Assembly (NCBI GenBank): GCA_965207385.1
Contig: CBDBLZ010000020.1
Location: forward strand, 288,932 to 352,931
DNA: 64,000 nucleotides
Origin: Rhodothermales bacterium
GTDB taxonomy: Bacteria; Bacteroidota; Rhodothermia; Rhodothermales; Bin80
Reading direction: 5' to 3'
Of this stretch, positions 32,551-56,728 are shown piece after piece. The translations under genes were made by a program, and so were the position numbers. Below the pieces are notes generated by a model that saw only the letters and a list, made by a program, of their open reading frames with translations, did not search any database and had not been told where the DNA came from. Each line of letters opens with the position of its first letter. Positions within the stretch are counted from its first letter, which is position 1.

Positions 32551-33648
32551 ATGGCAACGGCGGCAACGACGGACGCGATCAAGGTGGCGCTTCCTCACGG
32601 GCGCCACTACTACCTGCATTTCGCCGCGCTTTCGGCTTTGCCCAGGCTCATGCAGGAGCGCGGTTTGCGCCGTGGACCGTGCCTGGTGGTCACCGACAAC
32701 CTGGTTGCAGACCATTACTTGTCCGGACTGGTGCAGTCGCTTGCTGCAGGCGGATGGCAGCCGCACGCGATCGTTGTTGCGCCCGGCGAAGTTTCGAAGG
32801 ACCTGGCTGTCCTTCAGCACCTATACGATGAGGCGTTGGGTCAGGGCATCGACCGGAAGACTCCGATTGTAGCTCTCGGCGGCGGCGTTGTCGGAGACCT
32901 GGCGGGGTTTGCTGCGGCAACATTGCTCAGGGGCCTGCCTTTGGTGCAGGCCCCGACCACGCTTGTCGCTCAGGTAGACAGTGCCATTGGCGGCAAGACG
33001 GGAGTAAACCACACAGTAGGCAAGAACCTGGTCGGCGCCTTCTATCAGCCCGCGCTGACCTGCGCCGACCCCTCCACGCTGGAATCCCTGACAGATCTCG
33101 ACTGGGCAAGCGGGCTCGCGGAGGTCGTCAAGCATGCGCTTATCGCGGACCCAGCATTTGTCGCTTTTCTGGAGCATCACTGGTCCTCTATCCTTTCCCG
33201 GGATCCCGATTCCATTCAAGCCATCGTGCCCTGGGCAGCCTCCATCAAGGCCCGGATCGTCGCAGAAGACGAGCGCGAAGACGGCAGGCGAGCCATACTG
33301 AATTTCGGGCACACATTCGGACACGCCATTGAGCACGTTGCCGGCTACGGATACTTTAGCCATGGGGAAGCTGTTGCGCTTGGCATGCGTGCTGCACTGA
33401 AGCTCTCGCACCTGCTCCACGGCGACTTTCAGATTGAGCGGGCCCTTGAACTCGTGCGGCGCATTCCCGTGCGCGCATCGCTGTCATCCTATTCCGTCAC
33501 CCGGCTCATGGATGCCATGCGCTCGGACAAGAAGGTGCTGGCCGGTCGGCAGCGGCTGATTGTCCTGCGCGACATCGGACAGGCTTACGTCAGCGCCGAC
33601 GCAAGCGCTGCGGAAATCCGAATTGCCTGGGACTGGGCCCGTGCCTAG
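32551..33648 (+). CDS. aroB: 3-dehydroquinate synthase
   Basis: ALGGGVVGDLAGFAAATLLRGLPLVQAPTTLVAQVDSAIGGKTGVNH, ILNFGHTFGHAIE and HGEAVALGM. Confidence 0.92.
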   Translation: MATAATTDAIKVALPHGRHYYLHFAALSALPRLMQERGLRRGPCLVVTDNLVADHYLSGLVQSLAAGGWQPHAIVVAPGEVSKDLAVLQHLYDEALGQGIDRKTPIVALGGGVVGDLAGFAAATLLRGLPLVQAPTTLVAQVDSAIGGKTGVNHTVGKNLVGAFYQPALTCADPSTLESLTDLDWASGLAEVVKHALIADPAFVAFLEHHWSSILSRDPDSIQAIVPWAASIKARIVAEDEREDGRRAILNFGHTFGHAIEHVAGYGYFSHGEAVALGMRAALKLSHLLHGDFQIERALELVRRIPVRASLSSYSVTRLMDAMRSDKKVLAGRQRLIVLRDIGQAYVSADASAAEIRIAWDWARA

Positions 33649-39255: not shown

Positions 39256-42200
39256 TCACGCGCGCTGGCTTGCCACGCGAGAAGGGCTGTTGGCGCGGAG
39301 GTAAACGGCCATCATGGCCGGCACGAGCACCACCAGGAGGGCGGTGGCAATCATTATGCCAATCCCCAGGGATGCCGCGAAGGGAACCAGGAACTGCGCT
39401 TGTATGGCCCGCTCAAGGATGAGAGGCGTGAAGCAGAGAAAAGTGGTTACCGAGGTCAGGAATATCGGCCGGAACCGCCCTTTTGCGCCGCTGATGATGG
39501 CCGTCTTCGGATCGGCACCTTCCCTGAGTCGCTGATCAATAAAATCCATCATGACCAGGGAGTCGTTTACAACCACGCCGCTTAGCCCAAAGAACCCCAG
39601 AAACGAAACGGCGCCGATGGCTACGCCCAGCACCAGATGCCCCAGAACCACGCCGATGAGCCCGAACGGCACTATGGCCATGATGATAAACGGCTTGAGA
39701 TACGACTTCAGTGGAATAGCCAGCAGCGCGAAAATTGCGAGCATGGCCAGAAGGAAGCCGCGATACAGGGCATCCAGCGAATCCAGCTGCTGTTGCTGTT
39801 CGCCGCCGAAGGAATAGGTGAGCTCCGGGTTGGTTGCCAGAAGCTGTGCCAGGATGGTGTTCTCCAGGATACCGTTCGCCTGTCCTCCGGAAATCACGGT
39901 CACGTCGACATCGGCGGTCACATTCACAACCCGCTGCCCGTCCTGGCGCCTGATGGAAGGTGGCGACGTGCCCATGGTCATGGACGCCGCCTGGCTTATC
40001 GGCACATCTCTTCCCTCCCTGGTACGAATCAGGTATCCCTCGACATCGGTTATCGCCTGGCGCTCTTCGCCGGGAAGCCGGGCATAGACCCGCACCTCCT
40101 CCCGGTCGCGCTGCAGCCTTGTCGCCTCCACGCCAAAGAACGCCGCCCGCACCTGTCGAGCCAATTCCTCTACCGTAATCCCCAGCGTCCGTGCCTCCGG
40201 TCGCAACTCCAGCTGGATCTCTCCCACTCCCGGCGCGTGGTCGGACCGGACGTCGAATACGCCGGCCACACTGCGAAGACCTTCAACGACCGAATCGGCG
40301 ATGGAGACCAGGCGCTCCGGATCCGGATGGGACAGCACGACCGCAACCGGGCTGCCCAAATCGATCACTTCACCGGTGAATTCGATTCCCCGCACGTAGG
40401 GGAGTACGCCGACCTCTTCCCGCCACTGTTGCACCACAGCGATCGTGGACAGATTCCGCTGCTGGGCCCCCAGCAACTTGAACTCGATGGTGGCAATATT
40501 GGACTCCGGATTCGCGGTAGGCTTCGGCTCAAGGCCACCCCCCTCAATGTGAGGCCGCTGACCGACCGTGACAAGCACGCCCCTCAGCAAGGACGGAGCA
40601 TCACCCGGCCTCTGCTGATCCAGGCGCTCCAGGACACGCCTTCCCGCCTGCTCAATCTCCGTGGCCACCTCGTGGGTCCGATCCGCAGGCGTGCCGTCCG
40701 GCATCTCCAGCGTCGCTGTAACGAAATCACCTTCCACCACGCCGGCGAACGATGTCGGAATGATCCCGGCCGGTACCAGGGAAAGGCTGAGCACGAAAAG
40801 ACCAATCACACCCACCACCGTGATGCCGGGGTAATCGACCGAGAATCGCAGCACTCGATCGAGCGGACCCTCCAGAAACCTGTTCAGCCATCGATCCACA
40901 GCTCCACGTGTGCGAGAGAGCAACCGGTCCAGGACGTTGGTCGGCTCCCAATCCGGCCCCGGCAAGTGGGCAAGGTGCCTTGGCAGAACAAAGAGTGATT
41001 CAACCAGCGAGATCAGCAGCATGCCGATGATTATGACCGGCAGCGCCTTCCATACCTCACCAATGCCCCCTGGTACGAAGAGCAAGGGCACGAATGCCGC
41101 CACGGAAGTAAGCACGGCAAACGTAAGGGCTTTCTTGATGCGCCGCGTGCCCCGGATCGCGGCCGCGATGCCGGGTAAGCCCCGCATGCGCTCCAGGTGG
41201 ATATGCTCTGAAACGACGATGGCATCGTCTACAATGATGCCGATCGCCAGCACAAACGCGAACAGCGATATCGTGTTGATTGCCAGGTCCATGGCCAGCA
41301 TGACGGCCAGCGCACCGATGCCCGAGGTAACAAGGCCTACGATAACCCATAGTGCAAGCCGAATCTCGAGAAACAGGGCCAGCGAAACGAACACCAGCAA
41401 GAGTCCCAGAAGACCACTACGGGCCAGGAGGTCCAGCCGCTCCGAATAGGTTTGGGAGTCGTCGTTCCAGATCGTAACGCCGACGCCCTCAGGCAGCGAC
41501 GGCGCAATCACCCCGGCTATGTGGTCGTGCACGGCGCGCGCGACATCCATCACCTGCTCCCCTTCACCGCGATATACCTCCACAAAGACCGCCGGCCGAC
41601 CCTGATGCCGAAGGATCAGGTCCGCATCCTGAAAGGCATCGCGCACACTGGCGATTTCACCGAGGCGGATAGCCGTGCCATCGGTCTGGGCAATGACCAC
41701 AATCTCCTCGAAGTCCAGCTGATCGTAGCTCTGGCCGATGGTTCGAACGCGGACTTCGGCACTGCGCGTCTCGATGCTACCGGCAGACAGGTCAAGCGAG
41801 CTGCGGCGGACCGCCTGCGCGACGTCCTCCAGGGTCAGTCCCAGAGCACGCAGCCGAGCAAGCGGCACTTCAATCGAGATCTCGTACGCCCTGGTACCGG
41901 TAGTTACGACCTGCGACACGCTGGGCAGTGATCCCAGTTCGTCTTCAATCTGGTAGGCCAGTTCCTTTAGGGAGCGCTCGGGGATGTCGCCATAGACTAT
42001 CAGGCGGATCATGCTGGTGCGGTTGTCCATCTCCCGGAACTGGGGACGCTCGGCCACACTGGGAAACGACTGGATGCGCGCTACCGCTGACTGTACCTCG
42101 TCCATGGCCTCGCTTATATCCGTGCCCGACTTCAGCTCAACCCGCACCGAAGCCAGTCCCGGCGCCGCAATGGACTTGACCGCCTTTACGTCTGCGAGCG

Positions 42201-42450
42201 CCTCAACCTGCTCCTCGATCTTGACTATGACCGACTCCTCCACCTCCTCGGGTACTGCACCCGGATACACGATTGAGATCTCTATGGTATTGAACGGAAC
42301 AACGGGCCATGACTGTCGCTCCAGCCCTCCCAATGCCACGAGGCCTGCGGCCAGTATGCCGAACATCAGCAGGTTGGCGGCCACGCGGTTGCTCGCCATG
42401 TAGGCAATGGGCCCGCCGGGCTCCCCGTGATGGGCGTCAGTTCGATTCAT
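39256..42450 (-). CDS. RND efflux transporter permease (AcrB/CzcA superfamily)
   Basis: An internal ATG at 42450 gives MNRTDAHHGEPGGPIAYMASNRVAANLLMFGILAAGL. The protein is about 1060 aa with the 12-TM, two-large-loop architecture, including IGIIVDDAIVVSEHI and GVVVNDSLVMMDFI. Confidence 0.92.
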   Translation of the reverse strand: MNRTDAHHGEPGGPIAYMASNRVAANLLMFGILAAGLVALGGLERQSWPVVPFNTIEISIVYPGAVPEEVEESVIVKIEEQVEALADVKAVKSIAAPGLASVRVELKSGTDISEAMDEVQSAVARIQSFPSVAERPQFREMDNRTSMIRLIVYGDIPERSLKELAYQIEDELGSLPSVSQVVTTGTRAYEISIEVPLARLRALGLTLEDVAQAVRRSSLDLSAGSIETRSAEVRVRTIGQSYDQLDFEEIVVIAQTDGTAIRLGEIASVRDAFQDADLILRHQGRPAVFVEVYRGEGEQVMDVARAVHDHIAGVIAPSLPEGVGVTIWNDDSQTYSERLDLLARSGLLGLLLVFVSLALFLEIRLALWVIVGLVTSGIGALAVMLAMDLAINTISLFAFVLAIGIIVDDAIVVSEHIHLERMRGLPGIAAAIRGTRRIKKALTFAVLTSVAAFVPLLFVPGGIGEVWKALPVIIIGMLLISLVESLFVLPRHLAHLPGPDWEPTNVLDRLLSRTRGAVDRWLNRFLEGPLDRVLRFSVDYPGITVVGVIGLFVLSLSLVPAGIIPTSFAGVVEGDFVTATLEMPDGTPADRTHEVATEIEQAGRRVLERLDQQRPGDAPSLLRGVLVTVGQRPHIEGGGLEPKPTANPESNIATIEFKLLGAQQRNLSTIAVVQQWREEVGVLPYVRGIEFTGEVIDLGSPVAVVLSHPDPERLVSIADSVVEGLRSVAGVFDVRSDHAPGVGEIQLELRPEARTLGITVEELARQVRAAFFGVEATRLQRDREEVRVYARLPGEERQAITDVEGYLIRTREGRDVPISQAASMTMGTSPPSIRRQDGQRVVNVTADVDVTVISGGQANGILENTILAQLLATNPELTYSFGGEQQQQLDSLDALYRGFLLAMLAIFALLAIPLKSYLKPFIIMAIVPFGLIGVVLGHLVLGVAIGAVSFLGFFGLSGVVVNDSLVMMDFIDQRLREGADPKTAIISGAKGRFRPIFLTSVTTFLCFTPLILERAIQAQFLVPFAASLGIGIMIATALLVVLVPAMMAVYLRANSPSRVASQRA

Positions 42451-42673
42451 CGCGCGCACGCTGTACTCTTTCGAATCCGCGCCGGCGATGCAAGAGCAGC
42501 ACGCCGGCATTGCGGACGGGCGTCGACGGCTCTCTCATTCGGAGTTGCCGTCCGGGGGCCGGCCGGATCAAACCCAAGTGGCCCTTCGGGCCCGGCCAGG
42601 GGACCGGCTCCGCCGCCGGTAGGCATGCGCCTTCTGCCAGAAGCTGCCGGGTGCACACAAGGGCGGCCCCGGC

Positions 42674-43897
42674 TCATGGTCCGCTACCGGATCCAGTCCG
42701 CACGGGCATGCCCTGAACGGCCACCTGAATCCCTCCGATAATGGCCTGTTCGCCTCCTTCCAGCGCACCCGTCAGGAAAGCTTCGTCGTCCGAGCGATGC
42801 AAGACGCGCACGGGAACAATGTGGACGGTGCCATTGCGCACAACCCATACTTCGTTTCCCGGCCGCAGCGCAGGCCGCCGTACCCTGAAGTAGGTATCGG
42901 AGGCAACTCCGTCAATCTCCACCTCCACGAACTTGCCTACAAGAAGGGGCGGGCCGCCCTGATCTGCGGCGGGGCTGCCGGCATCCGCATACACGGGCAC
43001 GCCCGGGCCAAACGGATTCGGCACTCGCACGACCACCTCTACGGTGCGTGTACGCTCGTCCAGTGCCGCTTCTGCCCTGTCCACGTAGCCTTGCCAACCG
43101 AACCGCGCATCGGCGTAGGTGGCCACCACGCGAGCCCCCAGGCTCCTGTCGGAGCCTCCCGCCTCCAGCTGCCACAGACCCGGGATGAGCGCCATGCCGG
43201 GATCCGTCAGCGACACCACTACTTCGACCTCATCGGAAGCGTACATCCGTCCCACGCTGCGGCCGGCCGCCACGAACTGGCCTACGGCAACGGATTCATC
43301 CAGCACGACACCCGCAAACGGGGCATGGACGCTGGTGCGCGCAAGCTGCAGCTCGGCTGCCGCAAGCGTAGCCTGGTCCCGGGCCAGCGCAGCTGTGGCG
43401 GCCTCCATTTGCGGCCCCCATAGCGCCAGAGGACCGGTATCTTCGCCGGTCTCACCGCCTTGTCGCAAGGCACTGAACCGATCATACTGGGAACGCGCAA
43501 TTCGCGCCTCCTCCGTAACCCGAAGCAGCTCGACCTCCTGATAGGCTACGCTTGCGCGCGCCTGCTCGACCCTTGTGCGATAGTCGGCGTCATCGATGCG
43601 AAAGAGCAGCTCGCCCGACCGCACCTTCCCTCCACTCTGGAATGCCTGAGCAACCCAAACTACCCTGCCCGCAACCTCGGCCGTGACATCTACCTCGGCC
43701 CGCGGGCGGACCGTGCCCGCTCCGTGCACGGTTATGGATCCCGTACCGGCAACCAGCGGGGCCGTCTCGGCAAACGGAACAGGCGACGGGGCGGGGCGCC
43801 GTGCAGGTTCGGGCCTTCGGGCAACCAGAACCACGGCCACAACTACGGATCCGATCAGGATGCCACCGCCGATGGCGAAGCGCTTAAGTCTGCTCAT
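42674..43897 (-). CDS. RND efflux periplasmic adaptor (membrane fusion protein, HlyD family)
   Basis: An internal ATG at 43897 gives MSRLKRFAIGGGILIGSVVVAVVLVA (anchor). A coiled-coil hairpin (YRTRVEQARASVAYQEVELLR...AAELQLARTSVHAPFAGVV) and beta-barrel segments follow. Confidence 0.85.
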   Translation of the reverse strand: MSRLKRFAIGGGILIGSVVVAVVLVARRPEPARRPAPSPVPFAETAPLVAGTGSITVHGAGTVRPRAEVDVTAEVAGRVVWVAQAFQSGGKVRSGELLFRIDDADYRTRVEQARASVAYQEVELLRVTEEARIARSQYDRFSALRQGGETGEDTGPLALWGPQMEAATAALARDQATLAAAELQLARTSVHAPFAGVVLDESVAVGQFVAAGRSVGRMYASDEVEVVVSLTDPGMALIPGLWQLEAGGSDRSLGARVVATYADARFGWQGYVDRAEAALDERTRTVEVVVRVPNPFGPGVPVYADAGSPAADQGGPPLLVGKFVEVEIDGVASDTYFRVRRPALRPGNEVWVVRNGTVHIVPVRVLHRSDDEAFLTGALEGGEQAIIGGIQVAVQGMPVRTGSGSGP

Positions 43898-44920
43898 ATG
43901 TTCCGCGATTGCGCGGCCTGCCTTTCGATTTGTCTGTGCTTGGGCTACATACCACCAGATCCCGCAAGCGGGCGCAAGACCGTAGGCACCGCGCCTTCTG
44001 TGCGACGATTCGAGGCAGCCGCCGCGCGCCATGAATGCATCTGTGGACCAGTCGCCGGCGCGACGCGCGTCAAGGGCCGTGTTTTGAATGTACGCATGCT
44101 CGCCGCGGTTCTAACGAATGCCGGTTTTGCCGGGGCGGGCTGTTGTGTGTACAGGGCCCTTGCGGGTCCGGGCATCGTCAACGGGCCAGGGATCGCCAAG
44201 AGAAGGGGGCTGGCCTTCCAGGCGGCAAATCGGCTCGGATGACGCAGCGAAACAGGTCCGGCCAACGTACGGCTTCCAGATCTGTCGCAGCACCATAGGG
44301 AATCATTCCCGGAGGCCTCGCTGGAGCCGCATCCGCGCGCTTCCATCCCAGGCGGGAGTATTTCGGCGCTGGAGTTCAGCAACGCGGGCGGGTATCCGAA
44401 GCTCATGGACAGTCTGTAGACCAGGGACAATTATCAAATCCCAGCCGCCTCGCGGGCCGGGCATCCCGAAGCGGAATATGGCAGTTAGACGGTGCATTCC
44501 GCAGCGGCATCCGCCCAGTTCGAACTAACGGCATGCAGTTTTCTCAATGCCCTAATATAATTGTAGCCCGGTCAGAATTGCATTCGCCGCCGCGACATCA
44601 GCAGGTAGTCTCCTGCATTCCCGCCTGTTCTCCCGAAGTCAAGGATCTGCGGGCCTGGGGGCATGATGCAATCATAAGATTTCGACGATATCCCTGTGCG
44701 AATCGCTGCTGACCGCGCCCAATCGCCTCTCGCAAGACCACGGCCTGGCAGGAGTGCCAGCCAGTGGCCCGGTTCATTCTCCGCTCCGCGGATACAGGGC
44801 CTGACTTAGCATGATATGTGTTTGCGCTGCGGCATAGTGGTGAGGGCACGTAGCGAGCCTATTGCTTCGCTGATTCCGCCTTCTGCACGATTGCCGAGCG
44901 TCTGCGTCGGCGATCCCGGC

Positions 44921-45982
44921 TTATCCGGGCTTGCGGGCCAGGAAGCAATAGAGCGGGGTGAATACTCCTGTCTTGCCGCCTGCGACATAGGCATCGGCTG
45001 TTCGATCCATCAGCCGGACGACCGCCGTGGAACCCCTCGGAAATACCTTGAATACCTCCGCCATCCGCAATCCGCCGATCATCGCCTTGCGGCCCAGTGG
45101 CGTCCTGCGAAACGCATTACGCAATGTCCCGCTTTGTCCCTCCATGGGCTGGTACCATGGCGTACCCGTGCCGTCCCGGGCTCCCCGGTCCAACGCTTCG
45201 ACAACCTGGAACCCGACAGCCTCCAGCGCGCGATTCACCTCCGCGAATGTGGCGATGCGATTCAGGGCGATTCCAAGCATGAGTTCATCCTTTACGGCCT
45301 GGTGATGGCTGTTGTCGGGATCAAACTTGTTCGTCATGCACATTTCCTGGCCCCAGAAAAGGGCTCCGGGCTTTAGTACGCGAAAAATCTCGGCAAACGC
45401 GCCTTGCTTGTCGGGCGCGTGGCATGTCGACTCGATCGCGTAACCCGCATCGCACGAGCTGTCCTCAAGGGTGCTCATGTCCATGAAGTTGCACTTCACG
45501 TATTCGGCCAGGCGGTCGAGTCCCGCCTCGACGTTCCGTCGCCTGGCTTTCTCCAGTTGCTGTTCGTTGTTGTTGACGCAAACAACGCTGGCACCGGACT
45601 CGCGAGCGACGCGCCGCATCGGACCGCCCACGCCGCAGCCCACATCAACGACCCGCATCCCCTCGCACAACTCCAGCTTTTCGATCATCAGGCGCTGATG
45701 GCGGATGATAGATTCCTCCAGCGTCTCTGCCGGCGTCAGTGGCGCGAAATGCAGCGACTCGTTCCACCCGTATTCCATGAACTCGCCACACAGATCGTAA
45801 TAATTGTTGACCGTGTCGGCGTGGTCGTAGGCACTGCCGTCGGCCCCGGCCCGCTTTTTGCTCTCGATCCAGTTGCCAAATCGTGCCACACGAGCCGTGA
45901 CATTCCAGCCCCTGTATGAATTCCACAGGGACTTGGACAGGTTGGACAGGTTGGACTGCTCCGTGCCGCGAGTATGTCTCAT
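44921..45982 (-). CDS. sterol C-24 methyltransferase family protein (ERG6/SMT-type, SAM-dependent, with Sterol_MT_C region)
   Basis: 353 aa that aligns by eye with yeast ERG6 along its full length: YYDLCGEFMEYGWNESLHFAP, VDVGCGVGGP, YAIESTCHAP, VLKPGALF, TPWYQP and a C-terminal VAGGKTGVFTPLYCFLARKP. Confidence 0.85.
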   Translation of the reverse strand: MRHTRGTEQSNLSNLSKSLWNSYRGWNVTARVARFGNWIESKKRAGADGSAYDHADTVNNYYDLCGEFMEYGWNESLHFAPLTPAETLEESIIRHQRLMIEKLELCEGMRVVDVGCGVGGPMRRVARESGASVVCVNNNEQQLEKARRRNVEAGLDRLAEYVKCNFMDMSTLEDSSCDAGYAIESTCHAPDKQGAFAEIFRVLKPGALFWGQEMCMTNKFDPDNSHHQAVKDELMLGIALNRIATFAEVNRALEAVGFQVVEALDRGARDGTGTPWYQPMEGQSGTLRNAFRRTPLGRKAMIGGLRMAEVFKVFPRGSTAVVRLMDRTADAYVAGGKTGVFTPLYCFLARKPG

Positions 45983-47069
45983 CGGTTTTTCAGACCTGCT
46001 TCAGATTCGGGACTGAGAACTAATTCTAAGCGATACGCACCACGAGGGTGAATAGAGGGGCCGACAACATCGCCAGCGCAGGCATGTTTGCAGCCGGGCC
46101 AGATTCAGTCGGTATCCGGCGCTGGGACGGGTTTGAGCTGGACTCAAGATACTGCTTCGCAGCACAGTCTGACAGGCCCTGCTGGAGCTTTGGCAGGTGC
46201 TCTGCGCACCGTTGAGCCCATAACCAGGGATCGGTCTCCCAGGTGGCCATCGCGACCCGCCGTCGAAGCTGGTCCTTTGCTTGATCCGGCGCGTTCTCTT
46301 TCCGAGGTAGCAATGGAGGTACCAGGTATCGTTGGTGGCTGCAGACGGCGTCCCATCCGGCCCGTTGCGTCCACTGGAGCCTTGCCTGCGGCAAGTGATA
46401 GCTGTGCAGCTCTTGCCTCCGTGCCGGCCGGCTCCGCGTGCGGCTCCCGCTGGACATTGGAATCCAGGCTGCACGACGGGTTCTGAGCCAGCCGGTTGAA
46501 GTTCTCCGGGATTTGGCATTACAGCAGACGACCGCAGGGGCTCGCCTCGCAGAGTCCCGGATCGAGCTGCGCAAGATCATCTGACAAATCCATGGGCGCT
46601 AATCGACGGCTCGCGCGAGAGGTTCAGAAAACCCCGAATCGATTACGATGCACTATCGCCGGATTTCAACTGAATCCGGCGCCACGCCGGCCTGGAATCC
46701 ACCCAGGAGATGAAGCGGGCATTCACTTACATGAAGGCGGCCAGAAGTACTTTCTCTCACACGTTGGTGCAGCGTAATCGTGACGCGAACTTATTGAAGA
46801 ACCAATTTTTACATTGCAGTGCCGCGCATTCCAAATAGCGGCTCAATGGCCTGGCGCAGCACTGAGAGTACTCTCGCGTGGAGAGGCCGCGACAGCGTAG
46901 GAACTGGGATGCTTCGTCGTTTCCGCATAATGCTGCCCACTTTCTCCGGGAAGAATCTGCCGCCACCTACCCCGGGACCTGGATCCGCACAGGATTGGTT
47001 GCAATGCTGCATCCAATCGTAAATCCACTACCTTGAACGGGTACGCAAATCATTCTCGGCCACCAGTCC

Positions 47070-48134
47070 ATGGAATCCAGCAACGATACTCCCTCCGCAG
47101 TTTCCGATTCGCGTTCCCGGCGCATGCCTCAATCGACGCTCCCTCCGTTTCCGGAGGGCTGGTATTTCGTAACCAGCCACAAGTCCTTGCTAAAGAAAAG
47201 AATCATCCAGAAGACCTGGATGGGAGAGAACATTGTCATCTGGTGCAACGACGAAGGTCGCGTTTGCGTGGCGGAGGCCACCTGTCCGCACATGGGTGCC
47301 GACTTGAGTCCTTCCTCGGGAGGTACGGTTCAGGACGGCTGCCTCGTCTGCCCTTTTCACGGCTTCGAATTCGATGTAAACGGAACCTGTGTTGCCACCC
47401 CATATGCTCCTGCACCAAAAGCCACGCGGCTTCGCGTGTTTGAGACCCGGCACGTCCTGGACATGGTATTCGCCTGGTGGGGAATCGGCGGACGTCCGCC
47501 ACAGTGGAGTCTTCCTGAGGATCCTGAGACTGGTGAAGAATGGACAGAACTGGGCTTTCGGACCCTCCGTTTTGCGGGACACCCCCAGGAAACGACCGAG
47601 AATTCCGTGGACCTGGCGCATCTCAGATACGTGCACGGATACGACAGCGTCAACAGGACCGATCCGTTGACCATTGATGGCGCGCACCTCAAGAGCAGCT
47701 TCCTGTTCACGCGTCCCCAGAGCATCGCCGGCATCAGGAAAATCGTGTTCGATGTCGCCGCATGCGCGCATATTCACGGGTTGGGGTATTCGTATGTGGA
47801 GATACACGATCGCTATATAGGCATGCACGCGCGGCTGTGGGTGCTGGCTACGCCTGTCGATGGCAAAGAAATCAACATGGTGCTGGCAAGCCAGGTCAAG
47901 CTGATTCGCCGCCCGCAGCGGGCCATCGTCGGAATGAAGTTTCTCCCCGTCAGGCTCCGGACCAATCTCATGCGCAACATCATCCTGAATTATCAAAAGC
48001 ATGACGTAGTCCAGGATGTGGTAATCTGGAAGTATAAGCGCTACGTGCCCCAGCCGAGACTGTGCCGATCTGACGGTGAAATAGGGCGATTCCGTCGCTA
48101 CTGCCGGCAGTTTTATCCGGAGCCCCCTGGCTGA
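47070..48134 (+). CDS. Rieske [2Fe-2S] non-heme-iron oxygenase, KshA/Neverland-like class
   Basis: The Rieske motif is CPHMGADLSPSSGGTVQDGCLVCPFHG. The mononuclear iron motif is ENSVDLAHLRYVHG (D-x2-H-x4-H). The C-terminus is DVVIWKYKRYVPQPRLCRSDGEIGRFRRYCRQFY. Confidence 0.82.
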   Translation: MESSNDTPSAVSDSRSRRMPQSTLPPFPEGWYFVTSHKSLLKKRIIQKTWMGENIVIWCNDEGRVCVAEATCPHMGADLSPSSGGTVQDGCLVCPFHGFEFDVNGTCVATPYAPAPKATRLRVFETRHVLDMVFAWWGIGGRPPQWSLPEDPETGEEWTELGFRTLRFAGHPQETTENSVDLAHLRYVHGYDSVNRTDPLTIDGAHLKSSFLFTRPQSIAGIRKIVFDVAACAHIHGLGYSYVEIHDRYIGMHARLWVLATPVDGKEINMVLASQVKLIRRPQRAIVGMKFLPVRLRTNLMRNIILNYQKHDVVQDVVIWKYKRYVPQPRLCRSDGEIGRFRRYCRQFYPEPPG

Positions 48135-48222
48135 GTAATAAGCTCGGCAGCCCTCGCGCGCCGGGCATCGCTCCGGGGACGGACCGACCGCCCTGTTGAG
48201 TTACACACTTGCGCAGGCGCCC

Positions 48223-49635
48223 ATGGCTAGAGCGGGATCCCAGAGCCCCGGCCAGGGAGTGAGGCCGCGTGCATCACGGCCCAGGAGGGTGGCCATTATC
48301 GGCGGCGGCGTATCGGGACTCGCCACGGCCTGGGCACTGGCTCGCCATCCGGACCGATTCGATTTTCGGCTGTACGAAGCCCAGCCTCGAGTTGGCGGCA
48401 ATGCTATTACCGCCGATATGCCGCAAGCCGACGGTACCCAGATACCGTTCGACGTTTCGGTGACCGCGTGCATCCCGTCGGTCTACCATCATATCCTTCT
48501 GTTCATGCAGCGCCACGGCATTGACCTGGTCGATACCAGGTTCAGCTATAGCGTACGGTACCGAGGCCAGATATACGCGCACGATCTCGACTCAGAGATC
48601 CGAAGGCAGCTGCAGCCGGAAATCGCAAGATTCCAGAAGCTCCTTCGCCGTCTCCAGTGGTTCGGGCGACTGAATCATACCCGGTCAACCCTGCTCAATG
48701 CGCTTAACCCGTTCAATTACCTCACCATGGGCACCGTGCTCAATCTGGGCAGGTTTTCGGGGGCCTTCCGGTACAAGGTGCTGAAGCCCATGTTCGTCAA
48801 CTTCCTTATGGCGACGAACGTCTTTGACATGCCGGCGTCCCTCTTTTGCCGGTACCTGGAGTTCTTTGACATCGAGCGCGCCACGCCGATGCAGACCTGG
48901 GATCGGGGCACGCGGCGCATATACGAAAAGATGACGGAGCCATTTCGGGACCGGATTTACCTGAGCCGACCCGTGCGCAGCGTACATCGAAGCAAGAGCG
49001 AGGTACTGGTCGAGGACGAAGAGGGAACGACCCAATCGTACGATGAAGTGGTATTTGCGTGCACGGCGAACCAGACGCTGATGATGCTGGACAGGCCGAC
49101 CTTCCTGGAGAGCTGGATCCTGTCGTCAGTGCGCTACGAGAGCGAGCTGCACAACCACGCAGTCGTGCATTCGGACGGCTCCATTGTGCCAGACAACGAG
49201 GCCAGGCCCCTGGCGACGCGAAGCACCTACATGGAGCAGTACGGCGTCCGGCCCGACAACTACGAGATCACTTACATCATGCACAACCAGCAGCCTTGGG
49301 CGGCCAGCTCGGACAGACCGTGCCTTGTAACCTATAACCCGAACCACACAATCGACGAGGACAAGATCATCCAGAAATGGTGGTTTCAGCACATCGTCCA
49401 CAATGTTCGCCACGTTGCGATACTTGTACCTCTGTTCCGCTATATCCAGGGCAAGAGGCGCTCGCGGCACTGCGGAGCCCACACGCTGATCAACAGCCAG
49501 GAGACCTGCTTCGTATCCGGCCTCGTAACGGCGCGGCAGATGGGAGCGGATTACCCGTTCAAGGATTCTGAAGCCCGAAAGTGGTTCAACTTCTATGGAC
49601 GCATGATGTACGGATTGCGCTTCAAGAGGGCTTGA
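48223..49635 (+). CDS. FAD/NAD(P)-binding oxidoreductase, amine-oxidase/CrtI-like fold
   Basis: The dinucleotide fold is RVAIIGGGVSGLATAWALA...LYEAQPRVGGN. An ATG at 48223 is chosen; the track ORF begins at TTG 48196. The substrate is unknown. Confidence 0.72.
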   Translation: MARAGSQSPGQGVRPRASRPRRVAIIGGGVSGLATAWALARHPDRFDFRLYEAQPRVGGNAITADMPQADGTQIPFDVSVTACIPSVYHHILLFMQRHGIDLVDTRFSYSVRYRGQIYAHDLDSEIRRQLQPEIARFQKLLRRLQWFGRLNHTRSTLLNALNPFNYLTMGTVLNLGRFSGAFRYKVLKPMFVNFLMATNVFDMPASLFCRYLEFFDIERATPMQTWDRGTRRIYEKMTEPFRDRIYLSRPVRSVHRSKSEVLVEDEEGTTQSYDEVVFACTANQTLMMLDRPTFLESWILSSVRYESELHNHAVVHSDGSIVPDNEARPLATRSTYMEQYGVRPDNYEITYIMHNQQPWAASSDRPCLVTYNPNHTIDEDKIIQKWWFQHIVHNVRHVAILVPLFRYIQGKRRSRHCGAHTLINSQETCFVSGLVTARQMGADYPFKDSEARKWFNFYGRMMYGLRFKRA

Positions 49636-49757
49636 ACCGTCGTCGCACAGGGGCGTAAAGAGGTAATAGCTGAGTAATGGCTCACTAGGGCTGTGACTCC
49701 CGTCGCCGTACAGCGCTTTTTCCGCGACGAATACGTTAGCCACAAGCCGAGGTTGAC

Positions 49758-51782
49758 ATGGAGACCCTAATCGCGCAGCAACCGATCCGCATCGCCGAAG
49801 AGCTTGTCCTCCTTCTGCTTGACGAACAGAGCGGATACCTGGAGATGGTTCCGGGGTGGAATTTCTCGTGCGTCATGGCCGGGGCCGTTATTGCTGACCT
49901 GGCGCTCGCGGATCGCATCGATACCGACCTGGAGACCCTGTACGTAGTGGATTCGTCGCCAACGCGCGACGATTTGCTGGATGCAACTCTCCGGGAGCTC
50001 GTCGAATCCGAAGAGACGGCCGACGCCCAATACTGGATTGAGCGCAACGCCAGGCGCGCCGACGAAATAGTTGAAGCGACGCTCGAGCGACTCGTAGAGC
50101 GGAAGATCCTGGACTACCACATGGGAGGATTCTGGGGCCATTCCCGCTCGGTATCGCGCTCCGGCACCTATCCGGCCTCCGACGTGGAGACCCGCCGGGA
50201 AGCCAAGGCCCGGATCCTGGACGTGGTCCTGAATGACGTTATCCCGGATCCGCATGATGCCATTCTTATTGCCTTGATGCACACATGCGGCGGCTTCAAG
50301 CTGATTCTCTCGCAGGAAGACTATGACGAGAAGCTCGAATGGATTGAAACCATCGCCAAGCTGGAACTGATAGGCCGAACCGTGGCCACCGCGGTAAGAG
50401 AAAGCACGGCAACGCCGAAGACCCGGCAGGTTATACAGCGGAAGCCTATCCCAAAGCTGCGGATCATTGATGTCCTGCGACAGCCTGAATTCCGCACCTG
50501 TAATATCCCCGAGGCGATGTTTGGCCTCATGCAGAAGCACGGACCGGTGCTTCAATTGCCGGTCAAGATGGACGGGCTCCCTGCAGTTGCGCTCATGGGA
50601 GTGGAAACCAATCAGTGGGTCAACAAGCGCGGGCGCTTTTACCTTCGGTCAAAGGATTACATCAAGCATTTCGAGGCCGCATTTGGTGCCTCCCGGACCC
50701 TGCCTGGGATGGATGGCGCAGAGCATTACAGGATGCGCAAGTCCTTGCGCAGCGTCTACTCGCGCAGCACAATCGCGCGGCGGCTGCAGGAAATCTTCAA
50801 TTACTGCAGGCAATCCCTTGGCACATGGAAGGAAGGCGACCTGCTAGGGGCAACGGAGACGTTTCAGCATCACATCAGCAGCCAGATTTCGAACCTTGCG
50901 ATTGGAGTGGACTGCAGCCACTATGTCCAGGAATTACTGGAGTTTCAGCACCGCGCACTCGTTACCCACGTGCAGGGAGCGTTACCGCGATTCATGCTTC
51001 GTACGCCCAAAATGAGGCGGTATGCGCGGCGCGTGCAGGAGCTGCAGGAATCGGTGCACGCATCGCACACACCGGCGCAAAGAAAAGGCAAGCCGCAGGA
51101 CATTGCAGACGCATTGCTTGAGCTTCACAGGAGCGACCCGCAGTTCCTGCCGGAGACAGATATGACGTTTCCCTTCGTTGCTTCGATGGTCGCGAGCATC
51201 TACATGGGAAGCGCCCTCAGCTTTGCCATGTATTCCCTGGTTCGCAATCCGGACCTGTACGAGAGAGTTCATCGAGAGGCTGCAGCGCTGTTCGGAGGCG
51301 GACGGGACCCGGATGCAAAGGACTTTACGCTGGAGAACATCGATGTCACGCACCGATTCTGCCTGGAGTCCGCCCGCCTGCACCCGGTGATTCCCTGGCA
51401 AATGAGGACGGTCATGAATCAGTGCGTTATCAACGGCTACGAGGTGCCGGCGCAAACCCGCCTCGTGATATGCCAGACCGCTACCCACTATGACGACGAT
51501 TTCTTCAAGGATCCGCTCAAGTTCGACATTGACCGGTACCTGCCAGAACGTGCGGAGCACAAGGTACCAGGCGCCTACGCGCCGTACGGACTAGGAACGC
51601 ACACATGCCTGGGAAGCCGCTGGGTAGAACTCCAGATGGCCGTCAATATCCTGCTCATTGCATACCATTTCAGGCTGGAACCGGTATCCACCAATGGCAA
51701 GCTTCGGATTAATCCGTTCCCGACGGCCGCCCCGACCAGGAAATTCAAGCTTCGCGTCACCGAAATCACGCATCCGATCTGA
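49758..51782 (+). CDS. fusion protein: N-terminal GPP34/GOLPH3-like domain plus C-terminal cytochrome P450
   Basis: Residues 1 to about 220 (IAEELVLLLLDEQSGYLE..AGAVIADLALADRID..LERLVERKIL..RILDVVLNDVIPDPHDAILIALMHTCG) follow the bacterial GPP34 pattern. Residues from about 240 to 674 are a P450, with ExxR (ESARLHP) and the heme loop YAPYGLGTHTCLGSRW. Confidence 0.8.
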   Translation: METLIAQQPIRIAEELVLLLLDEQSGYLEMVPGWNFSCVMAGAVIADLALADRIDTDLETLYVVDSSPTRDDLLDATLRELVESEETADAQYWIERNARRADEIVEATLERLVERKILDYHMGGFWGHSRSVSRSGTYPASDVETRREAKARILDVVLNDVIPDPHDAILIALMHTCGGFKLILSQEDYDEKLEWIETIAKLELIGRTVATAVRESTATPKTRQVIQRKPIPKLRIIDVLRQPEFRTCNIPEAMFGLMQKHGPVLQLPVKMDGLPAVALMGVETNQWVNKRGRFYLRSKDYIKHFEAAFGASRTLPGMDGAEHYRMRKSLRSVYSRSTIARRLQEIFNYCRQSLGTWKEGDLLGATETFQHHISSQISNLAIGVDCSHYVQELLEFQHRALVTHVQGALPRFMLRTPKMRRYARRVQELQESVHASHTPAQRKGKPQDIADALLELHRSDPQFLPETDMTFPFVASMVASIYMGSALSFAMYSLVRNPDLYERVHREAAALFGGGRDPDAKDFTLENIDVTHRFCLESARLHPVIPWQMRTVMNQCVINGYEVPAQTRLVICQTATHYDDDFFKDPLKFDIDRYLPERAEHKVPGAYAPYGLGTHTCLGSRWVELQMAVNILLIAYHFRLEPVSTNGKLRINPFPTAAPTRKFKLRVTEITHPI

Positions 51783-54444: not shown

Positions 54445-56712
54445 TCATGGCAGGCGGCTCAGGCCGAGACCCACGAACAGACCCGGCCGGTCCAGCCTGT
54501 ATGTGAGGTCCAGCTGCACCGGACTCCCCCAAATCCCGGCGAGCGAAATCGTCAGTTCGTGGTGTCCGCCCCCCACGGCGACGTGACCACCGGATATCCT
54601 GATACCGGTACCCCGATCCACCAGCTGCCTGAGCCCAAGCAGCTCAAATGCCGATGTCTGGAAATCGTGTTCCCAGAAGAGCCCCAATACACGCTCACCG
54701 ACGTACGCTGTGGCCCTGGCTGCCCGCAGCATTCCGAATGAAGAGACAGGACCGGGTGTGCCGTCGATTGCTGATCTGCGCACTGCGGGCAGGGCACCGG
54801 TTGCTGTTGCGGCAAACAGCCGAACGGACAGACGATGAGAAATCGGCCTGTGACGAAAGAACGTCCGCGCATATCCGTCTACGCGAGCTGCGGCACGGAA
54901 GAACTTGCGATCACTGCCCGGATTGGCAAGGCTGCCGCGCTCGACTTCCACGCCGATTCCTCGCACGGGTCCGAGCCGAAAGGGTGTGCGAGGATCACCC
55001 GCTGATACTGCAATCGATACGGATTGCAAGCCCTCCTCAAGGACCTTTGGGTTTGGTCGCAGCTCTTTCCGGAAAGGCCATGCGCGTGCCAGTACGGCCT
55101 CCATCGATTCAAACCGCTCCAGATGCCCGGCCAGTGACAGCCGAATCCACCGGGTTGCGTATCCCGCGCGGACCTGGCCTGTCTGCGCCGATACGTAATC
55201 GAAGTAATCGCGGCCCCCGAGCAGCGTATAGAGCGAGCTAAGTGCAGGCGTGACTACGGGGCTGATCCACTGCTGCGCCGTAGCGCGCCCGTAAGAGGCA
55301 TGGGTTGAAAATCCCCGAACCCATCTGCGGCTGGCCTGCACTTGAAAGCGTGTCCGGCCCCCGGCTGTCGGCTGACCTACCCTGCTCCGAAACCGGCTTC
55401 GACGGTCGAATTGCAGTGTCCGGCTTGCTCCGAGGAGGAATCCTTCCACGCGATTGAAGCCGAGCCAGGGCTCCTGCCCCCGGACGGAAGGCCACGAAAA
55501 CTGGGGCTCATCCCACGGAAGTAACGCCGGGCGTCGCTTGCCAACCGTGGGCAGGGCCGTAAGCAACGTCAGACCCCGTCGCGGGAGAATGTCCCACGCC
55601 TCCGCCTCTGCAGGTGTCAAAGCTACGAATCCCCGTCCCAGCAGGAACAGGTCATCCTCGAAGACGGACGCGCTGTCGACAATCGTTCGGTCCTTCTCGG
55701 CATACAAGCTCTCGGGCACACTGATATTCAGGCGGTGGTCAGAAAGCTGGGATACCTGGTGCAAGACCGCCTGAACGGGCTCCCTGCCCGCAGAAATCCG
55801 GCCCTCGAGCCGTATGCTGAGCGGAAGCCAAAGGGAGTCCACTGCCAGGAATTGTTGTCGGTAGAACACGTCCCACCGCTGAATGGGAGGATGCCAGTGC
55901 ACATGCCGGGCTGGCCGCAGTTCTGCAGCTACGAGCGCATACGTGCTGTCCATTACCGAAATCCGCCCCGTGAACGTAGCCTCCAGACTCGTCTTCGGGG
56001 CTACATAAATGTCATACACGGTCCCCTCGTCCATCCTTCGATGCCCCGCAAACGTGAAATGGTAGTGCACGAGGGCATCCGGATGCGTCGGGCCCATAAA
56101 GCGTTGTGACTGTATCTGAATGTGGTTTGCCGACAGGTCGACCACGGTGTGATCCAAGCCAAGGTCGCGGTAAAAGTCTGCCGTCTCGCGCCGCGAGAGT
56201 ATCACGTCCCTGCTGCCGCGGCCGCGATCCCAGAAGCTGTCAAATACCGCCTCGCTCACCAGGACGATTTGTTCGCGGCCCTCCAGCGTGATGCGCGTGT
56301 ATCCCCGCATCTTTCTGGTCAGAAGCCTCGCGCGTCGCGCCGCCTTGCGCTCTATGGCCTTTCGCATCACGTTGTCGGCAAAATCCTCTCCCGTGACCAA
56401 GACTTCATCCAGCGTGTACACGGCGGGCTGCAGATCCACAACCAGGTCTCGATTGTCATTGGGCTCCAGCGCCACGCGGTGGGTCTGATAGCCCACGTGC
56501 CGCACCAGGATCACCTGCGGCAGCGTCTGCAGCACAAGCTCGAAGCGGCCGTCCCGGTTGGTAATGGTCCCGCCGGACTCAGCCACCACGTGCGCAGCCG
56601 CAAGCGGAAGGCCCGAGCGCGCCTCCCGCACTAGTCCTCGCACGAGGATCTGGGCAGGCACGGCATTGGGCAATGCCAGACCCAGGACGACGAGCAAGGC
56701 TGCGCGAGACAC
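54445..56712 (-). CDS. CarboxypepD_reg-like plus DUF5686 outer-membrane protein (paralog B)
   Basis: GTG at 56712, 16 nt after the upstream stop, gives the signal peptide VSRAALLVVLGLALPNAVPAQ. The N-terminal Ig-like domain is ILVRGLVREARSGLPLAAAHVV..GGTITNRDGRFEL. It aligns with the upstream paralog over its full length and has a beta-barrel-like C-terminus. Confidence 0.75.
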   Translation of the reverse strand: MSRAALLVVLGLALPNAVPAQILVRGLVREARSGLPLAAAHVVAESGGTITNRDGRFELVLQTLPQVILVRHVGYQTHRVALEPNDNRDLVVDLQPAVYTLDEVLVTGEDFADNVMRKAIERKAARRARLLTRKMRGYTRITLEGREQIVLVSEAVFDSFWDRGRGSRDVILSRRETADFYRDLGLDHTVVDLSANHIQIQSQRFMGPTHPDALVHYHFTFAGHRRMDEGTVYDIYVAPKTSLEATFTGRISVMDSTYALVAAELRPARHVHWHPPIQRWDVFYRQQFLAVDSLWLPLSIRLEGRISAGREPVQAVLHQVSQLSDHRLNISVPESLYAEKDRTIVDSASVFEDDLFLLGRGFVALTPAEAEAWDILPRRGLTLLTALPTVGKRRPALLPWDEPQFSWPSVRGQEPWLGFNRVEGFLLGASRTLQFDRRSRFRSRVGQPTAGGRTRFQVQASRRWVRGFSTHASYGRATAQQWISPVVTPALSSLYTLLGGRDYFDYVSAQTGQVRAGYATRWIRLSLAGHLERFESMEAVLARAWPFRKELRPNPKVLEEGLQSVSIAVSAGDPRTPFRLGPVRGIGVEVERGSLANPGSDRKFFRAAARVDGYARTFFRHRPISHRLSVRLFAATATGALPAVRRSAIDGTPGPVSSFGMLRAARATAYVGERVLGLFWEHDFQTSAFELLGLRQLVDRGTGIRISGGHVAVGGGHHELTISLAGIWGSPVQLDLTYRLDRPGLFVGLGLSRLP

Positions 56713-56728
56713 GAGTAGCGGCGCGTGG

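Follow-up and report, generated by a model that had tools for sequence, protein, structure and literature searches.

A putative sterol-tailoring and export island in a Rhodothermales bacterium, with a divergent sterol methyltransferase-family enzyme and a GPP34-cytochrome P450 fusion

We analysed a window of 64,000 nucleotides (64 kb) from a Rhodothermales bacterium (GenBank assembly GCA_965207385.1, contig CBDBLZ010000020.1, positions 288,932 to 352,931) and found, at positions 39256-51782 of this stretch, an island of six genes with predicted roles in the modification and transport of lipids (Table 1). The island comprises a sterol methyltransferase (SMT)-family enzyme dependent on S-adenosylmethionine (SAM), a KshA-type Rieske oxygenase, a flavoprotein of the amine-oxidase fold, a fusion of a GPP34 domain with a cytochrome P450 (GPP34-P450), and an RND permease with a membrane-fusion protein (MFP). 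An initial annotation of this DNA had described the four enzyme genes as one block. Translation of the open reading frames (ORFs) in the window reproduced their coordinates and strands, all of the motifs quoted in the annotation were found in the SMT translation, and the four genes are far beyond chance. The SMT and Rieske genes are divergent, with a gap of 1087 bp, and the three genes beyond this gap are a Rieske oxygenase, a flavoprotein and a GPP34-P450 as described, based on Pfam matches and, for the first two, on PDB sequence matches. The block was conserved elsewhere, but the unit is wider than had been proposed and includes the RND/MFP pair (39256-44032). No NCBIfam equivalog was matched by the SMT, Rieske, flavoprotein or GPP34-P450 proteins. 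Identical or near-identical island proteins are present in public assemblies, and the closest relative, the locus of an uncultured Rhodothermaceae metagenome-assembled genome (MAG; L001), is 91-92% identical to and syntenic with the window. Compared to L001, the ratio of nonsynonymous to synonymous substitution rates (dN/dS) was 0.07-0.18 for all six island genes (RND permease 97% identity, dN/dS 0.07), a sign of purifying selection.

Table 1. Positions of the island genes in the window and of additional genes in homologous loci (L numbers denote individual loci).
Feature	Sequence	Positions	Strand	Size and matches
RND permease, AcrB-type	Window	39256..42510	-	Longest ORF 1084 aa; Pfam ACR_tran 509.6 bits
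RND membrane-fusion protein (MFP, periplasmic adaptor)	Window	42674..44032	-	TIGR01730 RND_mfp 137.9 bits (cutoff 94.9); Pfam HlyD_3
SMT-family SAM-dependent C-methyltransferase, M81/L89/I249 clade	Window	44921..45982	-	353 aa; Methyltransf_11 69 bits + Sterol_MT_C 59 bits
Divergent intergenic region between SMT and Rieske operon (presumed promoters)	Window	45983..47069		1087 bp
KshA-type Rieske non-heme-iron oxygenase, oxygenase subunit only	Window	47070..48134	+	354 aa; Rieske 63 bits + KshA_C 87 bits
Amine-oxidase-fold FAD oxidoreductase, candidate lipid dehydrogenase/desaturase	Window	48196..49635	+	479 aa; Amino_oxidase 68 bits + NAD_binding_8
GPP34-cytochrome P450 fusion (GPP34_L)	Window	49758..51782	+	674 aa; GPP34 115 bits (residues 12-215), p450 131 bits (248-663)
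Canonical SMT paralog	L052	17250-18278	-	Region I of F-Y-E-Y-G-W-G-x-S-F-H-F type
Canonical SMT paralog	L003	11237-12238	-	Region I of F-Y-E-Y-G-W-G-x-S-F-H-F type
Canonical SMT paralog	L029	2498-3553	+	Region I of F-Y-E-Y-G-W-G-x-S-F-H-F type
Canonical SMT paralog	L039	2844-3881	-	Region I of F-Y-E-Y-G-W-G-x-S-F-H-F type
FA_hydroxylase-superfamily gene	L082	4505-5413	+	PF04116
FA_hydroxylase-superfamily gene	L084	2889-3797	+	PF04116
FA_hydroxylase-superfamily gene	L085	193-1101	+	PF04116

Conservation of the island was assessed by tblastn of the window proteins and by all-against-all clustering of neighbourhood ORFs in the best 80 of 287 SMT relatives (GTDB species genomes), each taken with 10 kb on either side; 63 of these loci had full flanks. 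Besides L001, the loci came from Gamma- and Alphaproteobacteria, Thermodesulfobacteriota, Dadabacteria, Chloroflexota, Dehalococcoidia and SAR202. Only eight families recurred around the SMT gene: GPP34-P450 (53 of 80 loci), Rieske oxygenase (44), flavoprotein (20), RND permease (19), MFP (21), outer-membrane factor (OMF; 15) and two kinds of MMPL/HAE3 transporter. Any other neighbour family was present in at most 7 of the 80 loci and belonged to unrelated housekeeping functions. Among the full-flank loci, a GPP34-P450 was found in 47 (75%), a Rieske oxygenase in 38 (60%), a flavoprotein in 18 (29%) and an RND-superfamily transporter in 50 (79%), with at least one partner near the SMT gene in 51 of 63. 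Co-occurrence of the four enzyme genes in other genomes, which the initial annotation had set as a test of its own proposal, was thus found. Gene content was kept while order and orientation were shuffled between lineages, and the outer flanks were unrelated. The window and L001 share the order P450< FAD< Rieske< SMT> MFP> RND>, and the Chloroflexota loci mostly show MMPL> SMT> P450< Rieske> FAD<.

Sequence identities between phyla were high, reaching 65-85% for the SMT, 73-81% for the flavoprotein, up to 72% for the P450, 58-78% for the Rieske oxygenase and 68% for the RND permease (Bacteroidota compared to Pseudomonadota), and the divergence of the partners tracked that of the SMT (r = 0.57-0.73). 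Several of the loci lie on complete-chromosome MAGs, among them OZ241964, OY761822, OZ250180, OZ220701 and OZ243931, and the cross-phylum spread is therefore not a binning artefact. No compositional sign of recent transfer was detected in the island, whose GC content at third codon positions (0.68-0.76) does not differ from that of the genes on either side; in this genome its composition is ameliorated. Many of the homologous loci came from the sponge MAG series SB06xx and PNGco, both confirmed as sponge-associated, and from PetF, a contig from Petrosia ficiformis. The island is common to uncultured bacteria of at least five phyla and is sponge-associated where the source is known. In one pair of loci, a LolA-like gene of L027 (Chloroflexota bin RHO2_bin_60) was 100% identical to that of L007 (Rhodospirillales, RHO3_bin_58) within the same architecture, which is probably due to mis-binning, and the labels of MAGs with short contigs need caution.

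The RND and MFP genes of the window are assigned to the unit because both families recur beside the SMT gene in other loci. Orthologs of the RND permease (64-70% identity) adjoin an SMT homolog in 19-21 of the 80 loci, which are mostly Gammaproteobacterial, and in six Gammaproteobacterial loci the SMT gene is located between the RND and MFP genes. The permease matched NCBIfam RND_permease_2 with 398 bits, under the equivalog cutoff, and its real start is probably the internal Met in MNRTD. Of a tripartite HAE1 system, the permease and MFP are encoded in the window, with the OMF found in 15 Gammaproteobacterial loci and in neither the window nor L001. In other phyla the AcrB-type RND/MFP pair is replaced by MMPL/HAE3 transporters with a sterol-sensing domain. 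The commoner of the two kinds (29 of 80 loci) scored above the Pfam Sterol-sensing cutoff and below the Patched sterol-sensing domain cutoff, and the second (7 of 80 loci) matched Sterol-sensing only, and weakly. The arrangement resembles that of HpnN (hopanoids) and BstA (sterols), in which an RND-superfamily transporter lies beside triterpenoid-modifying genes, and the MMPL partners likewise carry sterol-sensing-type domains; the pump of the window is, however, an AcrB-type HAE1 permease with an MFP. Orthology of the transporters to HpnN or BstA was ruled out (MMPL partners 105 bits against a cutoff of 752 for HpnN, and 34-39 bits against a cutoff of 1400 for BstA).

Membership of the window methyltransferase in the sterol methyltransferase family, including the C-terminal domain, was supported by matches to Methyltransf_11 and Sterol_MT_C (PF08498; 59 bits against a cutoff of 21.7, residues 290-352). 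It has 36.6% identity over 306 aa (BLASTP, E 1.5e-61) to yeast ERG6, which provides the residue numbering used here; the reference sequence agrees with 28 of 28 checkable published positions. In a neighbour-joining tree of 182 SMT-family sequences, midpoint-rooted and built without an outgroup or support values, the proteins with M81 and L89 formed one clade of 83, apart from 99 canonical sequences that include the ERG6 reference. All 99 sequences outside the clade carry a Region I motif of the canonical F-Y-E-Y-G-W-G-x-S-F-H-F type. The window protein carries the Region II motif D-x-G-x-G-x-x-G-P as VDVGCGVGGP; D125, G127, G129 and P133 are kept in all of 82 clade members and G132 in all but one, E195, G217 and W286 are invariant across the 82, and in the C-terminal motif G333 and G352 occur in all 82, F357 in 81 and P359 in 80. 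Region I of the window protein, by comparison, reads M-E-Y-G-W-N-E-S-L-H-F where Y81-E-Y/F-G-W-G-x-x-F-H-F is expected, and M81 (78/82), L89 (78/82) and I249 (75/82) occur in most of the clade.

A recent preprint (Brown & Welander 2025) listed 25 residues conserved in every SMT active in vitro, and of the 11 SMTs without activity on desmosterol and 24-methylenecholesterol, 7 deviated at one or more of them. Positions 81, 83 and 249 were reported to control sequential methylation, and in models they are no more than 5 Å from the docked sterol (Brown & Welander 2025). The window SMT keeps 20 of the 25 residues, with T78G, G86N, F89L, G147C and L341M as the changes, and additionally shows Y81M and an Ile at 249. 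The initial annotation had named the protein an ERG6-type C-24 methyltransferase. The family assignment holds, but Region I is not ERG6-like (M81, N86 and L89 for Y, G and F), and with 20 of 25 residues kept, C-24 methylation is not a safe call. Judged by its sequence, the window SMT is atypical of ERG6 and is a member of a divergent SMT-family clade. Compared to the SMTs described from uncultured and sponge-symbiont bacteria (Brown et al. 2023, PMC10070321; Brown & Welander 2025), it shares the Methyltransf_11 and Sterol_MT_C domains, the occurrence in sponge-symbiont MAGs, Region II, E195, G217, W286 and the C-terminal motif. It differs in belonging to a separate clade (M81, L89, I249, non-Thr at 78), in lacking 5 of the 25 residues of active SMTs and in its neighbours, which are oxidases and efflux pumps and not oxidosqualene cyclase (OSC), CYP51, ERG24 and SdmAB.

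The clade is large. At least 2905 SMT homologs were present in the protein collection, the best 120 being 69-85% identical and nearly all metagenomic; the scan of one genome per GTDB species returned the 287 relatives, and 264 were recovered at E ≤ 1e-30 from among 1.84 billion cluster representatives. The contig names of the JGI-sourced clade members (PetF_10007551, Ga0101551_1000466, Ga0101663_*, JGI24796J26693_1022035) match no tested Welander-lab gene ID. A canonical SMT paralog lies beside the divergent gene in four loci (L003, L029, L039, L052), and this argues for distinct functions of the two. The paralog in L052 has a Gly at 249, a residue reported to be necessary for 24-isopropyl formation. 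That the window protein is a plain ERG6-type sterol C-24 methyltransferase, completing an endogenous sterol pathway with three oxidative tailoring enzymes at its side, would agree with the presence of Sterol_MT_C, with the intact Regions II-IV, E195 and W286, with the JGI/IMG label "sterol 24-C-methyltransferase" on one clade member and with the occurrence of LSS-CYP51-ERG24 clusters in sponge-symbiont Rhodothermia (PMC9531527). We nevertheless regard this as unlikely, given the altered Region I (78, 81, 86, 89), the Ile at 249, the separation of the clade from canonical SMTs, the canonical paralogs, which argue for a non-redundant function, and the linkage to efflux pumps and not to cyclase clusters.

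The translation of the Rieske oxygenase gene contains the cluster ligands CPH...CPFH and the iron motif D-x2-H-x4-H (DLAHLRYVH), and its closest PDB sequences are those of KshA (4qdf/2zyl, ~90 bits). It shares with KshA, Neverland and SdmA the Rieske and KshA_C domains and the cluster and iron ligands, with KshA as the best PDB match, but its similarity to KshA is low and no KshB-type reductase or catabolic genes lie nearby; no reductase or catabolic gene was found in the window or among the recurrent neighbours of the 80 loci. Identification as SdmA was ruled out (41 bits against an NCBIfam cutoff of 600, with only the Rieske domain matching). Compared to L001, the Rieske gene had a dS of 0.70, with 0.16-0.28 for the other five island genes and one flanking gene, which suggests that recombination replaced the Rieske allele or that this gene has had a history of its own.

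The closest PDB sequence to the flavoprotein is the amine oxidase LkcE (76 bits, full length), and homologs with 76-87% identity occur across MAGs of Bacteroidetes, Proteobacteria and Acidobacteriota. A possible precedent for its role is UfaD, a flavoprotein of furan fatty-acid synthesis whose desaturation is specific to the methyl-branched product made by the SAM methylase UfaM (PMC7380195). The shared logic would be that of an olefin-acting SAM C-methyltransferase paired with an NAD/FAD-binding desaturase, and the likeness is one of functional analogy only, the substrate of UfaM/UfaD being a phospholipid acyl chain.

The oxidative enzymes and the pump could also serve to detoxify steroids or terpenoids derived from the host or from neighbouring cells, which would be hydroxylated, dehydrogenated and methylated before RND efflux. 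Sponge tissue is rich in bioactive sterols and terpenoids, steroid-degradation genes have reportedly been found in sponge metagenomes, Rieske enzymes of the KshA type, like P450s, are characteristic of steroid transformation, and the island is tightly interleaved with AcrB/MFP/OMF efflux genes. However, C-methylation by an SMT-family enzyme is anabolic chemistry for which, to our knowledge, detoxification offers no precedent; the neighbourhoods have no recurrent downstream catabolic genes; and the very high cross-phylum conservation suggests one defined substrate and not broad xenobiotic handling. A detoxification role therefore appears quite unlikely.

The GPP34-P450 belongs to a well-defined family. 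All of the 120 closest homologs have both domains and a length of 635-704 aa, with 66-83% identity to the window protein, and the heme Cys and the ExxR motif are invariant. The closest PDB sequences to the P450 domain are CYP51, CYP24A1 and CYP46A1, all weak (~60-70 bits). Assignment as CYP51 was ruled out, the scores being 69-71 bits at best (69 bits to the CYP51 of M. capsulatus) and the I-helix reading S-I-Y-M-G-S in place of A-G-H-H-T-S, where the CYP51 signature is A-G-H/Q-H-T-S; Y482, G484 and S485 of this helix region are invariant in the family. Across the loci two P450 subtypes were seen, with 64-67% identity to the window protein in some Gammaproteobacteria and 40-48% elsewhere, and three neighbourhoods (L003, L032, L049) contain two GPP34-P450 copies. 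An AlphaFold2 model of the fusion was mediocre (pLDDT 66.5, pTM 0.48).

The same architecture and length class have been described as GPP34_L, a monophyletic family present only in sponge symbionts (PMC11706023). The family was found in 96% of sponge Rhodothermia genomes and in zero free-living genomes, alongside rare GPP34-Rieske fusions; it is expressed in Aplysina aerophoba metatranscriptomes; and binding of phosphatidylinositol 4-phosphate (PI4P) leading to phagosome evasion has been proposed (PMC11706023). Of the PI4P-pocket residues of these binding proteins, Vps74 W88, R97, K178 and R181 correspond to GOLPH3 W81, R90, R171 and R174 (Wood et al. 2009, PMC2806290). When the GPP34 domain of the window was aligned to Vps74 (a weak alignment, E 5e-4, with high posterior confidence around W34-A41), only one of the four residues was kept, Vps74 W88 as W34; R97 is replaced by A41, an Ala conserved to 90% or more across the family, and K178 and R181 fall within a 10-residue deletion. 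PI4P binding and phagosome evasion are what was proposed for the published GPP34_L, whereas the fusion of the window sits in a lipid-tailoring and export island and is missing three of the four pocket residues.

If the fusion were a PI4P-binding effector that keeps phagosomes of sponge cells from maturing, and its neighbours were functionally unrelated, this would be in keeping with the restriction of the family to sponge symbionts and its expression in Aplysina aerophoba (PMC11706023), and the GPP34 domain itself is confidently detected. Against this, only the Trp of the pocket is retained, inspection of the translation by eye showed no obvious N-terminal signal peptide, no secretion system is encoded in the vicinity, and in most loci across phyla the fusion gene has SMT, Rieske, flavoprotein and lipid pump genes for neighbours. 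The published flanks, which are those of the short form GPP34_S in Actinobacteriota, show only a nearby cytP450, and the main text mentions neither sterols nor methyltransferases (PMC11706023). We consider the effector role very improbable for the protein of this island.

As the initial annotation had noted, no cyclase or epoxidase gene is present in the window, and a motif scan of the 64 kb for oxidosqualene and squalene-hopene cyclases was empty; the cyclase motifs V.DCT[AS]E and D.DDT[AS] occurred zero times in the window and zero times in the 80 loci with their flanks. Other genes of sterol type were found in subsets of loci. An ERG4/ERG24-family gene is present in 3 of the 80 loci, adjoining the SMT gene in L003, present in L062 and weak in L029 (33% identity), with none in the window. 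In L082-L085 a gene of the FA_hydroxylase superfamily (PF04116, the family of ERG3/ERG25) lies between the GPP34-P450 and SMT genes; neither the 80 GTDB loci nor the window had such a neighbour, and it was rejected as a core gene of the island, being lineage-specific.

Horizontally transferred ERG24-CYP51-LSS clusters have been reported from sponge-symbiont MAGs of ten phyla, with carriers that include Rhodothermia, Dehalococcoidia, Gamma- and Alphaproteobacteria, and ERG6 homologs were enriched and "scattered" in sponge-symbiont genomes (Kelly et al. 2022, PMC9531527). The initial annotation had counted only a few lineages as sterol producers, and in view of these clusters its list is out of date. 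Because sponge-symbiont Rhodothermia and other lineages carry transferred cyclase clusters, an endogenous sterol supply is plausible. The island resembles the clusters of Kelly et al. in its horizontal sharing across phyla, purifying selection, symbiont guild and enrichment of ERG6 homologs; the gene content, on the other hand, is entirely different, the window having no cyclase, CYP51 or C-14 reductase.

The substrate could instead be a non-sterol olefinic lipid (squalene or another polyprenoid, a hopanoid or an unusual fatty acid), with the SMT fold recruited as in the triterpene methyltransferases of Botryococcus. The altered sterol-binding Region I and the separate clade would fit such a substrate, as would the missing cyclase in the window and the 80 loci, a polyprenyl synthetase gene that adjoins in three Gammaproteobacterial loci, and transporters of the HAE3/MMPL type that are orthologous to neither BstA nor HpnN. 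The structural neighbours of the modelled P450 include fatty-acid and retinoid P450s, and the UfaM/UfaD analogy, for what it may indicate, concerns fatty acids. The KshA-like Rieske oxygenase points the other way, together with the ERG4/ERG24 genes, canonical SMT paralogs, ERG3/ERG25-like genes and sterol-sensing-domain transporters in subsets of the loci and the enrichment of sterol genes in the same symbiont guild (PMC9531527), and we judge a non-sterol substrate to be rather improbable.

The best-supported reading of positions 39256-51782 is a mobile, symbiosis-associated module for the tailoring and export of a membrane lipid, most likely a sterol. We put the probability that the six genes form a functionally linked unit for lipid tailoring and transport at about 0.85, and that of a sterol substrate with the scheme working as described here at about 0.55. 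The sterol context counted in its favour consists of Sterol_MT_C, the KshA-like Rieske oxygenase, the MMPL transporters with a sterol-sensing domain, the ERG4/ERG24 genes, the canonical SMT paralogs, the ERG3/ERG25-superfamily gene and the PDB matches of the P450. In the scheme and order of steps that we infer, the substrate would be a sterol of the inner membrane, supplied by an acquired cyclase cluster elsewhere in the genome or by the host. The divergent SMT-family enzyme would then use SAM to C-methylate it at a side-chain double bond. The KshA-like Rieske oxygenase may hydroxylate or desaturate the sterol, the FAD dehydrogenase, in analogy to UfaD, may desaturate it beside the new branch, and the P450 may remodel it as well. 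The N-terminal GPP34 domain would act as a membrane or lipid docking module of the P450 and not as a PI4P-specific effector. Finally, an RND-superfamily pump, AcrB/MFP here and an MMPL transporter with a sterol-sensing domain in Chloroflexota, would take the product to the envelope or out of the cell.

Several observations weigh against a sterol-tailoring and export module. All of the enzyme roles are predictions from sequence. The window SMT departs from the residues of active SMTs at T78, G86, F89, G147 and L341, position 81, known to control side-chain chemistry, is a Met, and the usual delta-24 sterols, or sterols at all, may not be its substrate. Neither a cyclase, an epoxidase, CYP51 nor SdmAB is encoded in the window or within 10 kb of the 80 homologs, and no redox partners (KshB-like reductase, ferredoxin) were found in the island. 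The I-helix of the P450 (residues 475-490) is without the usual acid-threonine pair; such a missing pair is seen in non-canonical P450s, for example peroxide-rearranging or substrate-assisted enzymes. A fold search of the PDB with the modelled P450 was non-discriminating, giving a flat list of class-II-like P450s from which no substrate would be assignable. In 12 of the 63 full-flank loci the SMT gene has no nearby partner. Some MAG taxon labels are also unreliable, with L027 and L007 sharing identical genes.

The remaining genes of the window are chromosomal housekeeping genes of Bacteroidota flavour (purH, mreBC, dacB, fumC, htrA, aroB, TamB, HhH-GPD, RluA, DUF5686 paralogs, DprA and a peptidase S46). 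At 33560-38260 (+), directly upstream of the RND gene and convergent with it, lies the gene for a 1566-aa TamB/DUF748 protein, of a family implicated in inter-membrane lipid transport. This gene shows synteny with L001 and lies outside the island in other phyla. Two tandem paralogs with CarboxypepD_reg and DUF5686 domains, typical of Bacteroidota, are located at 54445-56793(-) and 56729-59041(-), and the start of the downstream paralog (54445-56793) is probably internal, because the longest ORFs of the two overlap by 65 bp. The intergenic region between the SMT and Rieske genes is unusually long, and ~650 bp of it (46340-46990) are unconserved even compared to L001. It contains no ORF conserved beyond this close relative, and Rfam gave zero matches in the window or in this region. 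Promoter and terminator scans gave matches not above shuffled expectation. No small conserved ORF such as a ferredoxin was found in the gaps of the island.

The initial annotation knew of no described pathway with this enzyme set. The parts themselves have been published (PMC10070321, PMC9531527, PMC11706023), but their linkage into one island was not found in the literature searched, which held no report physically linking GPP34_L with an SMT-family enzyme, a KshA-like Rieske oxygenase, a flavoprotein and lipid pumps, and no recognition of the M81/L89/I249 SMT clade. Every component class is already known, and of the three key facts two were published recently. Three published observations on sponge symbionts, namely bacterial SMTs, spreading sterol genes and the symbiont-exclusive GPP34-P450, thus meet in one island. 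The GPP34-P450 family gains a testable biochemical context, lipid or sterol tailoring and export, that competes with the phagosome-evasion hypothesis. In addition, a large methyltransferase clade is defined that is changed at positions reported to line the sterol side-chain pocket and that has thousands of relatives in metagenomes.

An enzyme of the M81/L89/I249 type could account for unexplained sterol side chains of sponges. As a long shot, the clade may perform a side-chain alkylation foreign to canonical SMTs, such as C-26/C-27 methylation or cyclopropanation, and, with the flavoprotein desaturase, the Rieske oxygenase and the GPP34-tethered P450, make the "unconventional" sterols long taken to be sponge-specific, which the RND pump would deliver to the host. 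Side-chain-alkylated steranes (24-isopropylcholestane, 26-methylstigmastane) are used as evidence for the earliest animals, so that any further alkylation chemistry in bacteria is of direct relevance to that debate. If this proposal were true, the sponge-exclusive GPP34-P450 family would be a sterol enzyme and not a phagosome effector, and bacterial symbionts would be a source of the sterane biomarkers used to date early animals. If the substrate is a host sterol, the island would exemplify a symbiont that edits the membrane lipids of its host.

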